A stretch of DNA of 7,068 bases from the IMG/VR virus record IMGVR_UViG_2534681649_000006, one strand, 5' to 3'. Positions within the stretch are counted from its first letter, which is position 1. The number at the start of each line of letters is the position of its first letter. Of this stretch, positions 3,147 through 7,068 are shown in pieces. The stretch comes from a virus. Lineage: Duplodnaviria > Heunggongvirae > Uroviricota > Caudoviricetes. The notes beneath the pieces are model-generated. The model was not told the DNA's origin. It saw only the letters and a program-made list of their open reading frames with translations, and searched no databases. The position numbers were made by a program, and so were the translations under genes.

Positions 3147-3173
3147 AAATTCAATCACTTATACATCATTAAG

Positions 3174-4199
3174 TCAGTGACAAAAATCACACGTGGAATT
3201 ACTTGGAATATTTTCAGGTAACGGGACATCAAGTGTCGGTGAAACTTTAACCTTCCTGTCATAGATTAGCACTTGCCCCTCGGTTTTGTGACCAGAGAAA
3301 AGTTGCTTATCCCGACTGCTTCCTTCATAGTCTGAAATTCCTTTCGCCTTCAGATCATGAAAGGTGAAGTCGGTTAAAATACCTGAAATTTTGCCTGCGC
3401 GATTTCTTGCTTCTACCCACATTTCGTTAAAGCCTTTGTACATATATCGGTTGCCGTATTGATTGCTGATTACATAGGCGGATGTTGGTAACTGTTTTGC
3501 TTTTTCGATCGCCGCCTGTAATCGTGGACTCCATGCTTTTATCTGTTTTTTTCCTGTTTTCCCTTGCTGGATAAAGATCCCGTCGTTTCCAATCTGCTCC
3601 CATTTCAGCGATAACACATCGGAAACCCTCGCTGCACACAGATAGGCAATTTCCATTGCGATAAAAACAGGAAGAGGTGCAACGCTTAATACTGCCTGGT
3701 ATTCTTTGTCGGTTACATATCGTTCGCGGTTTTTGGCCTTGAATTTACTTACACCTGCACATGGGTTAGCCTTCACGTACCCTCGCTCATACCCCCAACT
3801 GTAAACGCGGGACTTCATGGTTGGCTTGCGTTTTACTCTGTTCCCCTCTCTTGTCCATGTATCGACGGATGTGTTCTGGTTTTATGGAATCTGCCGGCAC
3901 CTTACCGAATACGGCAAGCAACTTTTTTGATGTTGCAGATAATCTTTTTGTGTTCTTGGACTGAGGTCACTGTAATAGGCGCTGGCGAGGAATTTTTCCC
4001 ACAAGCGACCGAATGTCATTGCACGATCGCGATTATTTACAGTTTCCTCATACTTTTTCCATAAAGCAGCTAAACCATCCTTGATGGCGGTTAGTGTTAC
4101 AGATTCGCTGGATGTTGGTTTCCATACATAACTATATTTATTTGGGTATACATTTGGAGGTAATTTTTCGTGCTCAGGATTTTTCCTTCGTCTTCCCAT
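3174..4199 (-). pseudogene. Lambda-family tyrosine integrase with an in-frame TAA at 3882-3884 (codon 106 of about 341)
   Basis: Track ORFs 3882..4199 (MGRRRKNPEHEKLPPNVY..., lambda-Int-like arm-binding N-terminus) and 3174..3818 (catalytic domain) are in the same frame, separated only by TAA and 21 open codons (NQNTSVDTWTREGNRVKRKPT). Catalytic-domain landmarks are present: AARVSDVLSLKW (Arg I), GKTGKK, FHDLK, GHK and LIYDRK (Tyr). Confidence 0.8.
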
Positions 4200-4402
4200 C
4201 AGATCGCACCAAAATTCGGCTCTACCTCGCGTGGTGGTAAAGTTTTATTGCAGGTAAATAGATCCCGGCTGACAATCGGTTTGCCACTACGATTGGTATA
4301 GAACGGAAGCTCGTTTTCCATTAACCATTTTCGCTGGTGGCTTGCATATTTGCAGCCCGTTAATATTAGCAATTCATCTTCGGTTAAAAATAAGCTGCTC
4401 AT
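4199..4402 (-). CDS. Small phage excisionase-like / DUF4224-type DNA-binding protein (putative recombination directionality factor)
   Basis: 67 codons, MSSLFLTEDELLILTGCKYASHQRKWLMENELPFYTNRSGKPIVSRDLF..., resembling small proteins found immediately upstream of phage integrases. Its stop overlaps the int start (TGATG at 4197-4201), consistent with translational coupling. Confidence 0.6.
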   Translation of the reverse strand: MSSLFLTEDELLILTGCKYASHQRKWLMENELPFYTNRSGKPIVSRDLFTCNKTLPPREVEPNFGAI

Positions 4403-4419
4403 AGCTATATCTCATAACC

Positions 4420-4445
4420 GCCGCTAACTATATACGGTTAGCGGC
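4420..4445 (-). promoter_or_regulatory. Perfect 9-bp inverted repeat (GCCGCTAAC, 8-nt loop, GTTAGCGGC) between the exo stop and the xis-like start
   Basis: 4420-4428 pairs with 4437-4445. It lies 17 nt upstream of the xis-like ATG on the transcribed strand and is not followed by a U-run, so it is not a canonical terminator; possibly an operator, RNA processing or arm-type site. Confidence 0.3.
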
Positions 4446-4460
4446 AATTAGGGTTGAACA

Positions 4461-5003
4461 TTAAAAATCAGCCTGACTCGGGATCAGTTTTTGCCAGATA
4501 GCTGAAACGTATTTTGCCTGGTAACGAGCGTCATCAAGTGCATTATGGCGCTCACCTTCGAATGGAATAGCCGTTCTGGCATCGAAGTCTATGGCTTTCC
4601 CCAGCTCAACGATTGTGCGTACATCGCGATCGTTGTAGTAACGCCACGGGCAGGGGATCCCCTGCCGTTCGTATGAACGGCGCAAAATCGTGTTGTCGAA
4701 GTTGGCTCCATTTCCCCAGACCTGAACAAAAAATTCACCGGAGTTTTCGTCGATAAATTCCCGCAATTGTAACAGTGCATCATCTAACGGGATTTCATCG
4801 GTCATAATGGCAGATTGCGCTTCGCGTGATTGCTTAAGCCACCATTTAATGGTGTCCCGATCAATGACTCCGCCAGCAGTTTCCAGATCGATAGTCTTAC
4901 TAAATTCGGGTCCCATATCTCCGGTTTGCGGATCGAAAAATATTGCACCTATTGAGATGATCGGGGCATCAGGATTTTTTCCCATGGTTTCAAGGTCGAT
5001 CAT
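4461..5003 (-). CDS. DEDDh-type 3'-5' exonuclease (DnaQ-like fold), prophage-encoded
   Basis: MIDLETMGKNPDAPIISIGAIFF (Exo I, D-x-E), VWGNGANFDNTIL (Exo II) and ERHNALDDARYQAKY (Exo III, H-x4-D). I place the start at ATG 5003-5001, 7 nt after the TGA of the upstream recE-like frame. The track ORF start at 5186 adds a 61-residue Lys/Arg-rich extension that looks like an out-of-frame reading of the acidic recE-like tail. Start is uncertain. Confidence 0.65.
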   Translation of the reverse strand: MIDLETMGKNPDAPIISIGAIFFDPQTGDMGPEFSKTIDLETAGGVIDRDTIKWWLKQSREAQSAIMTDEIPLDDALLQLREFIDENSGEFFVQVWGNGANFDNTILRRSYERQGIPCPWRYYNDRDVRTIVELGKAIDFDARTAIPFEGERHNALDDARYQAKYVSAIWQKLIPSQADF

Positions 5004-5010
5004 TAGATGG

Positions 5011-6646
5011 TCACACGTCCTGCTGGTGGATGTGATTTCGTGATGACCATTCACCGTAATTAATCTCGCCAGTTTTACTATCGCTGGCGTGGTCCTGAGC
5101 GCTGCCAGCATTCTCCTTGTGTGGATGTTCAGCGCCTTCCATTTCCTCCGGATCATTTTCCTGAACTTCAACCTGATTCTCTTCATCGAATGTTTTCTGG
5201 TATGTTGCGTCGTCCATCACCGCGCCACAATCAGGGTAGTTGCCGCCACCGCTCTGACCGCAGGCGGTGCAGACTTTTTCCGGTTCCTGTTGCGCTACTG
5301 GTTCGGATTGTTTCGTTTCTGGCTCGTTTTGTAACGCATTTGGGCTGTTTTGTTCCGCTTTTTGGTCGTTCCGTTCCGATTCATGCTGGTTCTGGTTCAC
5401 AGAATCGCGAGTCTGGATCCCCTTGACCCATTTCGGATCATTAGGGTCGCTAATCCCCTCAACAAATTCACCACGCGATACAGCAAGTAACTTATCGGCG
5501 TCAGGCTGGCTGATATTGGCTGCCTGCATAATTTTGTTTACTTCGTCAGCGGTGACTTTTACTTGGTTAGCGGAACTCACCTGCGACTGAGCATCCAGCG
5601 ACTGCGCGTTCTGGCAATGTTCAGTTGTATCCGGTTCCATTGTTTCAGTTGTTGCCTGTTCACCTGCCATTGCGTCAGATGGTTGTGGTTTTTCTTCTTC
5701 TGTTTCACGCTCAGTAACCACCTCGCGGTTAATTTCTTCCAGGATATCTTTTTCCGGCGTATGCCGGGTAGCTGTGAGAGTTTCCTTGCTGGGGTTCTCG
5801 TGATCAGTTTCCGTCAAATAGGCGTTGATATACCCCTGAAGGCGTCCCGGGTAGTGATAAAATTCAGGGTGTGCGCTTCGGATAAGTGCAAAAATAGCGG
5901 CGCGGGAATAGTCCAGAATACCCGGGGGTGCACGAAGTGCTGCGGACCATTCTTTGAACGGACTTTCTTTTTTCAGGACTACTTCTTTTGCGCGACGATA
6001 AACGCTGCCCGGAATTTCATAAATATTAAAATCCATCGGAAGTGTGGCTGCTGCAATCTCCACATCCAGTGTGTCGAGGGTGTGTACTAAATTCGGATTG
6101 CGATCGGTTTTGTTCCCACCACCAGCATTAGCACCGGAAGCCGTGCGGGTGATGCGTGAAACACGATTTCCTTTCATCCACTCTTTTGTCAGCAGGCCCC
6201 GAACAGTGTAGTCAGCGTCCAAGTATGCTTCGAAAAAAGCAGTTATTAGTCCCAGGTCTGAATTACCAGGATTAGGGAAAACTTTGTCAGTGTCACGAAC
6301 CAGTTTGTGGAGGTCGCGAATCTCCAGCGAGTCGAGCAGACTGGTTTTATGCGAAATAGCCAGGGCAGTAACAGCCGGTAGTTCTTCAGCCCGTGCAATG
6401 TGTAATGCCTAGAGTTCGTCGCGTGAAACGTGCGTTACTGGTTTTTCGCTGCCGTGTTGAGCAAGCCAACGAATGGGCAGTTCCTGACCGGAGACAGGTA
6501 GAAGCATGCTCTCCTCAATCTCAGTCATGTCTTCGCCGTTGATGTTGGTATTATCAGTGCTGGCTGATTTGTCCTGAACAGAGGGGGAAGGGCCGATAAA
6601 TGTCATTGTGATGCCATCTTTCCCGCCTTTTTCATAGCGGTTGCAG
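5011..6646 (-). pseudogene. RecE (exodeoxyribonuclease VIII)-like N-terminal region: 5' end cut by IS1 at 6646/6647, in-frame TAG at 6409-6411
   Basis: One minus-strand frame reads CNRYEKGG...[47 protein letters not shown], then TAG, then [36 protein letters not shown]...[36 protein letters not shown]...[19 protein letters not shown]...[10 protein letters not shown]..., ending at TGA 5013-5011. Long stretches match my recollection of the non-catalytic N-terminal part of Rac RecE. The track ORFs 6409..6660 and 5011..6222 are in the same frame; their apparent starts are TTG codons, the first inside the IS1 terminus. Confidence 0.75.
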
Positions 6647-6701
6647 GGTAATGCTGCCAACTTACTGATTTAGTGTATGATGGTGATTTTAAGGTGCTTG
6701 C

Positions 6702-6977
6702 GTGGCTTCCATTTCCATCAGATGTCCTTCCTGCTCCGCTACTGAAGGCGTGGTGCGTAACGGCAAAAGCACTGCCGGACATCAGCGCTATCTCTGCTCT
6801 CATTGCCGTAAAACATGGCAACTACAGTTCACTTACACCGCCTCTCAGCCCGGTACGCACCAGAAAATCATTGATATGGCCATGAATGGCGTCGGATGTC
6901 GCGCCAGTGCACGCATTATGGGCGTTGGCCTCAACACGGTTTTACGTCACTTAAAAAACTCAGGCCGCAGTCGGTAA
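6702..6977 (+). CDS. insA: IS1 InsA (transposition inhibitor / N-terminal part of InsAB' transposase)
   Basis: GTG start at 6702. Translation [91 protein letters not shown], 91 aa, stop TAA 6975-6977. It differs at a few residues from the IS1A InsA I recall, so a divergent isoform. Confidence 0.9.
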
Positions 6978-7068
6978 CCTCGCGCATACAACCGGGCAGT
7001 GATGTGATTGTCTGCGCTGAATGGACGAACAGTGGGGCTACGTCGGTGCTAAATCACGTCAGCGCTGG
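6896..7068 (+). CDS. insB: IS1 InsB (transposase catalytic ORF, -1 frame relative to insA), 3' end outside window
   Basis: The -1 frame is open from ATG 6896 to the window end: [58 protein letters not shown]..., matching the conserved InsB N-terminus. Confidence 0.8.
6951..6959 (+). other. IS1 programmed -1 ribosomal frameshift motif (TTAAAAAAC, A6C) joining insA to insB
   Basis: The A6C run sits at the insA/insB overlap, and the downstream insB frame is open. This is the established IS1 InsAB' mechanism. Confidence 0.6.

Follow-up and report, generated by a model that had tools for sequence, protein, structure and literature searches.

A serU-borne prophage end of the CP-933U/Sp14 type, probably decayed and immobilised in Shigella boydii 4444-74

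The stretch of DNA analyzed here (the window) is the whole of contig AKNB01000187.1 (7068 bp) from Shigella boydii 4444-74. Its gene order, yeeJ-asnT-mtfA-serU, is that of Escherichia coli K-12, and we place the start of phage DNA at 3147 because the two sequences part company directly past the CCA end of the serU tRNA. All phage genes (integrase, DUF4224 protein, and exonuclease pieces) are on the minus strand and read toward serU. ARAGORN, the K-12 comparison, and domain matches agree with the first-pass annotation, made from the sequence alone, which had put phage DNA directly after the serU 3′ end with its genes facing the tRNA; comparison of K-12 with the window also confirmed its claim that serU is empty in K-12, with no prophage there. 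The features of the locus are as follows.

3057-3146, plus strand: serU, tRNA-Ser(CGA), the bacterial attachment gene (ARAGORN; b1975 in K-12, with the same neighbors mtfA, asnT, and yeeJ)
3116-3146, no strand assigned: att core ACCGGGGGTTCAAATCCCCCTCTCTCCGCCA, 31 bp, identical to the serU 3′ end; attL crossover region, with a second copy in the SCU-105 prophage
3174-4199, minus strand: integrase pseudogene, tyrosine recombinase of the CP-933U type (frame segments 4199-3923, 3922-3814, and 3813-3174)
3196-3219, no strand assigned: phage arm by the core with candidate arm-type integrase binding sites (two TGGAAT motifs; one 13-bp unit, TTGGAATATTTTC), overlapping the int 3′ end
3813/3814, minus strand: 11-bp deletion (ATACTGCTTTT on the plus strand of relatives), the second int frameshift, from alignment; codons for KSSM lost
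3882-3884, minus strand: TAA, the first stop in the shifted int frame (TTA on the plus strand), from three-frame translation
3922/3923, minus strand: 1-bp deletion, homopolymer T7 to T6 on the plus strand, the first int frameshift, from alignment to intact relatives
4199-4402, minus strand: intact, excisionase-like DUF4224 protein, 67 aa (PF13986, E = 7.7e-13; PHROG 1266 "excisionase," E = 6e-19)
4461-6646, minus strand: RecE-N::DEDD exonuclease pseudogene, 813 aa when intact (first 245 nt missing; three ORF pieces; PF06630 and PF16473)
5063/5064, minus strand: 11-bp deletion (GGGATCTGCCG on the plus strand of relatives) at the linker that joins the RecE-like part to the DEDD domain, from alignment to relatives
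6409-6411, minus strand: TAG nonsense codon, CAG (Gln161) to TAG, by G to A on the plus strand at 6411 (CTA on the plus strand)
6647-7068, plus strand: IS1 copy, insA-proximal end, with inverted repeat GGTAATGCTGCCAAC from 6647; truncates the exonuclease gene and runs off the contig end

A guide to what this DNA once was is the intact prophage of E. coli SCU-105. Over positions 350-6646 the window is collinear with that strain's serU locus and the left end of its prophage (98.5% identity over the aligned stretch); there, all three genes (int, DUF4224, and exonuclease) are intact. The 31-bp core in serU is duplicated at the far end of this prophage, 48 kb away (locus position 48243), and is followed there by K-12-type flank; on the yodB side of the serU site, the flank reads CTTTATCAATGACTTATC. 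The intact element is ∼48 kb in all: its module runs serU, P′ arm, int (341 to 359 aa), DUF4224 (67 aa), RecE-N::DEDD exonuclease (813 to 823 aa), and ydfD, then dicB onward, and after it comes a lambda-like immunity, replication, lysis, head, and tail set (in SCU-105, repressor/cro-like, antiterminator, holin, lysozyme, terminase, portal, capsid, tape measure, gpJ, and tail fiber genes).

O157:H7 TW14359 and the phage record vB_EcoS-689R5 share the serU-int-DUF4224-exonuclease layout at serU; it is seen in commensal E. coli, an induced phage record, and O157:H7. Two entries of a phage collection matched over nearly their full extent; these were E. coli phage records, induced or predicted, and told us no more than the chromosomal relatives did. 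The family is common across E. coli and was at serU in every case that we checked. Of 5426 complete E. coli genomes, 1138 carry this int 3′ end and phage arm. Integration at serU is therefore not lineage specific, contrary to what had been suggested; the pattern of decay is.

The 214-aa C-terminal integrase ORF matches PF00589 (E = 2.7e-11), and the catalytic domain is present, but in place of a single uninterrupted tyrosine recombinase ORF we found one broken by two deletions. Compared with the intact 345-aa integrase of E. coli FORC 064, the window int shows two indels and point changes and nothing else; since its ORF is broken relative to this homologue, we consider it a pseudogene of a PF00589 family member. 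The 36 codons between the deletions are read in another frame, in which the TAA at 3882-3884 is encountered. The true frame from 3922 to 3814 reads KLLAVFGKVPADSIKPEHIRRYMDKRGEQSKTQANHE, as in intact integrases, which makes the TAA a consequence of the 1-bp frameshift rather than a substitution. Thus, the first-pass annotation, which attributed inactivation of int to this in-frame TAA, had the position right and was correct that int is broken; the cause is not nonsense mutation but two frameshifting deletions. Both are common to all eight S. boydii loci compared, including that of the complete genome of Sb227 (CP000036.1), and the 214-aa ORF left by the 11-bp deletion is listed in 199 blocks of a public collection. 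Other S. boydii strains have an IS3-family insertion in int.

The only intact gene among the prophage genes of the window is the 67-aa DUF4224 ORF, whose stop overlaps the int start and whose product differs from that of SCU-105 by one substitution (G31E). Its membership in the excisionase family follows from annotation labels: PHROGs 1266, 4764, and 8896 are all labeled excisionase, a predicted activity.

The exonuclease is a single CDS of 2442 to 2472 bp in SCU-105, phage vB_EcoS-689R5, FORC 064, and O157:H7 TW14359. The 11-bp deletion at 5063/5064, which the first-pass annotation had overlooked, splits this one gene in the window, giving the appearance of separate exo and recE-like genes; the earlier reading of such a module beside int holds, except that its two genes are one gene of 813 to 823 aa in intact relatives. 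The in-frame TAG that the same reading reported at 6409-6411 is there and is a true CAG-to-TAG change. Neither this codon nor the 5063/5064 deletion is present in eight other S. boydii assemblies, in which a 718-aa ORF runs through the deletion site. Changes in the exonuclease remnant comprise five nonsynonymous and one nonsense versus three synonymous, and one Cys of a CxxC...CxxC motif is gone.

Seen in the window alone, the 241-aa ORF (DEDD domain) and the 403-aa ORF are plausible as separate genes, and one might suppose that the split genes are natural and functional: separate exo and recE-like genes, a two-part int, and perhaps programmed frameshifting. We regard this as exceedingly improbable. 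The exonuclease is one CDS in all four records cited above, and int is one CDS of 1026 to 1080 bp in five chromosomal or phage records; the genes break at the 1-bp and 11-bp deletions seen against these intact relatives; and the 403-aa ORF is on record from one contig besides the window's own. Nor did we find intact full-length homologues with natural stops at the lesion positions, an outcome for which the first-pass annotation had allowed, as all intact relatives examined have single ORFs.

Is the broken exonuclease a RecE? The Rac prophage recE of K-12 (exonuclease VIII) and the intact exonuclease both match PF06630, the Exonuc_VIII region (E = 6.6e-36 on the intact homologue), and both lie early-left near int/xis. 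Residues 58 to 616 of the intact exonuclease are 59% identical to residues 50 to 592 of K-12 RecE. Beyond RecE residue 592, however, the homology ends, with no significant similarity further on; a PF16473 (Rv2179c-like) DEDD 3′-5′ domain takes the place of the RecE C-terminal part, which in RecE is the 5′-3′ nuclease domain. There is also no recT beside the exonuclease in the prophage locus. Because the RecE C-terminal part is replaced and an adjacent recT is lacking, we conclude that the intact exonuclease is not part of a RecE/RecT recombination module.

We also weighed whether the lesions arose as errors of sequencing or assembly in a draft contig from 2012, the genes being in truth intact. 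The 1-bp int deletion falls in a homopolymer run, a classic error site, and the 5063/5064 deletion and the TAG are those missing from the eight other S. boydii assemblies. However, the two int deletions recur in complete genomes such as that of Sb227, and the TAG is also found in contigs from read sets SRR6760278 and SRR22578003. An assembly from read set SRR364094 (Logan), carrying both the 5063/5064 deletion and the TAG, reproduces window 2060-6672 base for base, which makes assembly error unlikely; SRR364094 probably represents 4444-74's own reads, in which case this assembly is independent in assembler but not in reads. We therefore rejected error, which the first-pass annotation had named as a possible source of the stops, after exact-sequence look-ups of lesion-specific ORFs, and give it very little probability. 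Both outcomes named in advance as refuting, natural stops in intact homologues and assembly error, thus came out negative, in favor of pseudogenes.

At 6647 the phage DNA gives way to an IS1 terminal inverted repeat followed by insA (6702-6977), whose product has the zinc ribbon and HTH domains PF03811 and PF12759. The first-pass annotation had IS1 cutting the 5′ end of the recE-like gene at 6646/6647; the junction is correct, but the cut is not a simple one, as IS1 comes with a deletion in complete S. boydii genomes. In Sb227 the IS1 measures 768 bp, lacks a target-site duplication, and meets on its far side DNA that lies 1.8 kb further along the intact prophage. The ∼1.8 kb missing from the complete genomes comprises the exonuclease 5′ end, ydfD, dicB, ydfC, ydfB, and most of ydfA, and the gene tables of other S. 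boydii loci have a repressor gene directly past IS1. Since the window stops inside IS1 and the far side in 4444-74 is not seen, a simple insertion, with the exonuclease 5′ end and ydfD-dicB intact just beyond, might still be imagined for this strain; we think it quite unlikely, given the arrangement in Sb227 and the other gene tables, and given that Sb227 and the window otherwise hardly differ at this locus (over 7 kb, 17 columns differ, and the 5063/5064 deletion accounts for 11 of these). The related complete genomes thus suggest that 4444-74 probably has the ∼1.8-kb IS1-associated deletion as well.

Taken together, positions 3147 to 7068 very probably represent the attL end of a CP-933U/Sp14-type lambdoid prophage at serU, persisting in S. 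boydii 4444-74 as an immobilized, decaying remnant. The core of the first-pass reading, a decaying serU lambdoid prophage end, therefore stands, but its count of at least three lesions does not: we found five, predicted from sequence to inactivate two genes, int and the exonuclease. Shared versus private lesions across the eight S. boydii assemblies give the order of events. The element very probably integrated by tyrosine-recombinase crossover within the 31-bp core at the serU 3′ end; in an S. boydii lineage, int acquired its 1-bp and 11-bp deletions, and the same lineage underwent the IS1-associated loss of the ∼1.8 kb that spans the exonuclease 5′ end through ydfA. Later, in the 4444-74 sublineage, the exonuclease remnant gained the CAG-to-TAG change and the second 11-bp deletion; other S. 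boydii strains instead received the IS3-family insertion in int.

An element without its own integrase would presumably be unable to excise by itself and would need one of matching specificity acting in trans. When we searched S. boydii loci reaching ∼6.7 kb past IS1, where they stop still within prophage DNA and short of attR, we found the att core ACCGGGGGTTCAAATCCCCCTCTCTCCGCCA, or its last 17 bp, only as the serU copy, and at one locus found neither. Lacking its 5′ end, and cut off from the early-left genes upstream of it, the exonuclease remnant is probably nonfunctional in all its pieces. Nothing in the window, where the 67-aa DUF4224 ORF alone is intact, supports the idea of a remnant that still has a regulatory or recombination role. 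We infer that selection on the locus was relaxed and that the changes are neutral decay of a kind common in Shigella.

The type to which we assign the element is known from O157:H7, with relatives in commensal E. coli; in O157:H7, CP-933U/Sp14-type prophages have the same order by serU: int, DUF4224, RecE-N::DEDD exonuclease, ydfD-like, and dicB. Their int 3′ end and phage arm are 97.3 to 97.5% identical to the window, and the S. boydii int fragment is entered in a public source as "integrase for prophage CP-933U." Unlike this type, the copy in the window carries an interrupted int and an exonuclease gene that is both broken and truncated; ydfD-dicB-ydfCBA, present in CP-933U-type relatives, has probably been lost in 4444-74 to the IS1-associated deletion. 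A published account (PMC8065619) describes CP-933U as a cryptic prophage with type III secretion system effectors and names serU as a site of phage insertion.

Within 7 kb the locus displays the decay pattern of Shigella: elements of IS1 and the IS3 family, yeeJ with both a nonsense codon and an IS, and several small deletions in prophage genes. Pseudogenization and IS expansion are general in Shigella, and this is an ordinary, already known instance of gene decay with nothing distinctive about it. It illustrates stepwise prophage domestication and decay, with little import beyond annotation: the locus is correctly annotated as two pseudogenes, an integrase and an exonuclease, in place of four or five small genes, and is to be recognized as a fixed remnant of the CP-933U/Sp14-type family. 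The nested lesions (int and IS1 deletions first, then either the IS3-family insertion or the TAG and 11-bp deletion) are usable as S. boydii lineage markers.

The phage arm next to the core is variable among relatives. The 13-bp unit TTGGAATATTTTC, single in the window, occurs in one to four tandem copies, and copy number shifts the C-terminal reading frame of int (345, 341, 359, or 358 aa). A 13-bp "deletion" at 3203, considered as a sixth lesion, was rejected for this reason: the unit is a one- to four-copy VNTR, and FORC 064, whose annotated 345-aa int is intact, has a single copy. Copy number also sets the count of putative arm-type Int sites in the P′ arm; that slippage in the repeat tunes how efficiently prophages of this widespread family integrate and excise is a speculative and rather doubtful proposal. 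The TGGAAT motifs may be arm-type Int binding sites, and TTGGAATAT is a putative sequence of such a site. In 49.9 kb of intact prophage locus, four of the five occurrences of TTGGAAT lie <150 bp from the two att cores.

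The K-12 match ends at the CCA of serU, directly past which the two sequences diverge, so foreign DNA begins at position 3147, where the first-pass annotation had placed the start of the phage. Past serU, the minus strand encodes an integrase (PF00589), a DUF4224 protein, a PF16473 DEDD exonuclease domain, and a PF06630 Exonuc_VIII region. On the bacterial side, the gene order yeeJ-asnT-mtfA-serU is that of K-12, in opposite orientation. Insertion sequences occupy both contig ends (IS3 family, 1 to ~350; IS1, from 6647), as is usual in draft assemblies. Two Shigella boydii 4444-74 proteins (GCA_000268185.1; EIQ44592.1 and EIQ44593.1) match lesion-specific ORFs of the window.

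Features of the bacterial flank and the exonuclease gene
567-1751, minus strand, yeeJ remnant (ORF and domain search)
1990-2065, minus strand, asnT
2166-3002, minus strand, mtfA
3057-3146, plus strand, serU tRNA-Ser(CGA)
4461-6646, minus strand, exonuclease chimera (7340-9781 in L001, a locus with intact prophage genes)

By megablast, 267 complete Escherichia coli genomes cover at least 80% of 3147-6646, with a top identity of 98.6%. Beside serU, E. coli SCU-105 carries intact genes for a 341-amino-acid (aa) integrase, a 67-aa DUF4224 protein, and a single 813-aa "exonuclease," followed by ydfD, dicB, ydfC, ydfB, ydfA, an immunity region, replication genes, an antiterminator, lysis genes, and then a lambda-like head and tail set. 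A 31-bp sequence at 3116-3146, ACCGGGGGTTCAAATCCCCCTCTCTCCGCCA, recurs 48 kb away in SCU-105, where K-12-type flanking DNA resumes; the repeat marks the att core and delimits an element of ~48 kb. Phage record vB_EcoS-689R5 and O157:H7 TW14359 share the serU-int-DUF4224-exonuclease(-ydfD-dicB) layout. In 4745 of 5426 complete E. coli genomes, some part of the whole 3.5-kb query finds a match, a figure that does not separate the shares of individual genes. Integration at serU had been proposed to be lineage specific, but 1138 of these 5426 genomes contain the integrase 3′ end and phage arm: the prophage family is common, and only its decay is lineage specific.

Global alignment of 3147-6646 to SCU-105 yielded 13 substitutions and four internal gaps. 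Where at least three inactivating lesions had been claimed, a count that holds, there are five in two genes: two integrase deletions, a deletion at 5063/5064, a TAG codon, and IS1. Within a T-run, loss of 1 bp (3922/3923) throws the integrase out of frame, and an 11-bp deletion (3813/3814) removes four codons. The TAA at 3882-3884, earlier read as an in-frame stop, is present and in frame with the ORF upstream, but it is a consequence of the frameshift, being the first stop met in the wrong frame, and not a nonsense mutation. It looked in-frame because the two deletions together numerically restore the original frame; the 36 codons between them read correctly in another frame only. The DUF4224 gene, in contrast to its neighbors, is intact, with one substitution relative to SCU-105.

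The "exo" and "recE-like" genes described previously are one gene in intact relatives, split here by an 11-bp deletion (5063/5064) in the linker joining the RecE-like part to the DEDD domain. The in-frame TAG at 6409-6411 was borne out: it is a genuine CAG (Gln161)-to-TAG substitution. In the intact exonuclease, residues 58-616 share 59% identity with residues 50-592 of K-12 Rac RecE, where the similarity ends, before the C-terminal part of RecE, which holds its 5′-3′ nuclease domain. The exonuclease instead ends in a PF16473 Rv2179c-like DEDD 3′-5′ exonuclease domain (E = 8.3e-68), weakly similar to the solved "exodeoxyribonuclease" chains 8kel and 8ken, and no recT adjoins the gene in the intact locus, unlike in Rac. 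The label "recE-like" therefore suits the N-terminal part alone, and the gene does not form a RecET module. In this family, the so-called "exonuclease VIII" is a chimera of a RecE-like N-terminal region (~560 residues) and a DEDD 3′-5′ exonuclease domain; we know of no defined function for the former, nor of any annotation beyond PF06630. The remnant has 5 nonsynonymous, 1 nonsense, and 3 synonymous substitutions and has lost one Cys of a CxxC...CxxC motif, a pattern compatible with relaxed selection.

As reported earlier, IS1 cuts the exonuclease 5′ end at 6646/6647: its inverted repeat begins at 6647, insA comes next, and the element replaces the first 245 nucleotides of the gene. The insA gene reads away from the remnant, which faces the insA-proximal IS1 end. 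In S. boydii Sb227, this IS1 is 768 bp, lacks a target-site duplication, and is joined on its far side to DNA found 1.8 kb farther on in the intact prophage. The deletion has thus removed the 5′ end of the exonuclease gene along with ydfD, dicB, ydfC, ydfB, and most of ydfA. Compared with this copy of IS1 in eight S. boydii assemblies, the insB region shows a 1-bp deletion at 7019, an unreliable difference in a multicopy repeat at a contig end that may be a collapsed-repeat artifact rather than a mutation.

Assembly error is very unlikely to explain the lesions, since the Logan assembly of SRR364094 is an exact substring of the window (2060-6672) and the TAG is also carried by contigs from SRR6760278 and SRR22578003. 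All eight of the other S. boydii assemblies compared, the complete Sb227 genome among them, share the two integrase deletions and the IS1 junction, and in each the exonuclease remnant stays open as a 718-aa ORF; within this set, the TAG and the 5063 deletion are private to the window. Three of the eight have, instead of these, an IS3-family insertion in the integrase gene near 3898-3903. In the most economical history, the prophage would have integrated at serU, the integrase frameshifts and IS1-associated deletion would have arisen in an S. boydii ancestor, and further hits would have followed independently in sublineages.

The extra IS3-family element (~8609-9915 in S. boydii loci L005, L006, and L008) has the bases of window positions 3898-3903 on both sides. 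The old deletion at 3813/3814, found in all S. boydii loci compared, and the recent one at 5063/5064, found in this strain alone, are each exactly 11 bp long, with no direct repeats or obvious microhomology on the flanks of either; we have no explanation for their equal size other than coincidence.

The element now has an intact excisionase-like ORF, no intact integrase, and a truncated, twice-broken exonuclease gene. It is probably unable to excise by itself; at most, an integrase of the same specificity could mobilize it in trans, if attR survives. The exonuclease remnant lacks its 5′ end and the genes formerly upstream, and we found no support in the prophage stretch of the window for the suggestion that it still supplies regulatory or recombination functions. 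Degradation of this kind is known in Shigella genomes. The element belongs to the CP-933U/Sp14-type prophage family, which is well known (in a public source, the S. boydii int fragment goes by the name "integrase for prophage CP-933U"), and serU is already on record as a phage insertion site (PMC8065619). The element is already known in kind; it is of use mainly for annotating its pseudogenes correctly and for supplying lineage markers.

We rejected a 13-bp gap at 3203 as a lesion: FORC 064 also has a single copy of the repeat involved, and its integrase is intact, annotated, and identical in its C-terminal tail to that of the window except for one residue. Each step in copy number alters this tail.

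Copies of the 13-bp unit TTGGAATATTTTC and integrase length
Window, 1 copy
FORC 064, 1 copy, 345 aa
SCU-105, 2 copies, 341 aa
TW14359, 3 copies, 359 aa
Z1323HEC0355, 4 copies, 358 aa

The unit and the motifs described next map to 3196-3219 in the window, 6045-6083 in L001, 4546-4596 and 1546-1609 in fetched loci L020 and L019, and 48101 and 48165 in L012 (SCU-105). The intact prophage locus (49.9 kb) has five occurrences of TTGGAAT, four of them less than 150 bp from the attL and attR cores, and this clustering makes the motifs and the 13-bp unit look like candidate arm-type Int binding sites. The first motif of the window copy carries a T-to-G change (3193).

The 31-bp core at attR in SCU-105 is preceded by a longer partial copy of the serU 3′ half that has diverged. 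Between its tail fiber genes and attR (L012, 45201-47414) lie nonphage genes for a manganese catalase, two ferritin-like proteins, and a general stress protein, which could be moron cargo or the leftover of an older island at serU.

The yeeJ gene, which encodes an inverse-autotransporter adhesin, is a pseudogene too: a nonsense change has turned CAG into TAG at 567-569 (strain L007 has G at position 569, and its ORF spans 1991 aa), and an IS3-family insertion, presumably IS629-like, extends from ~350 to the contig start. Beyond this insertion, the DNA varies among S. boydii strains (DmsC/isochorismatase versus DUF496/sbcB), which indicates IS-mediated rearrangements.
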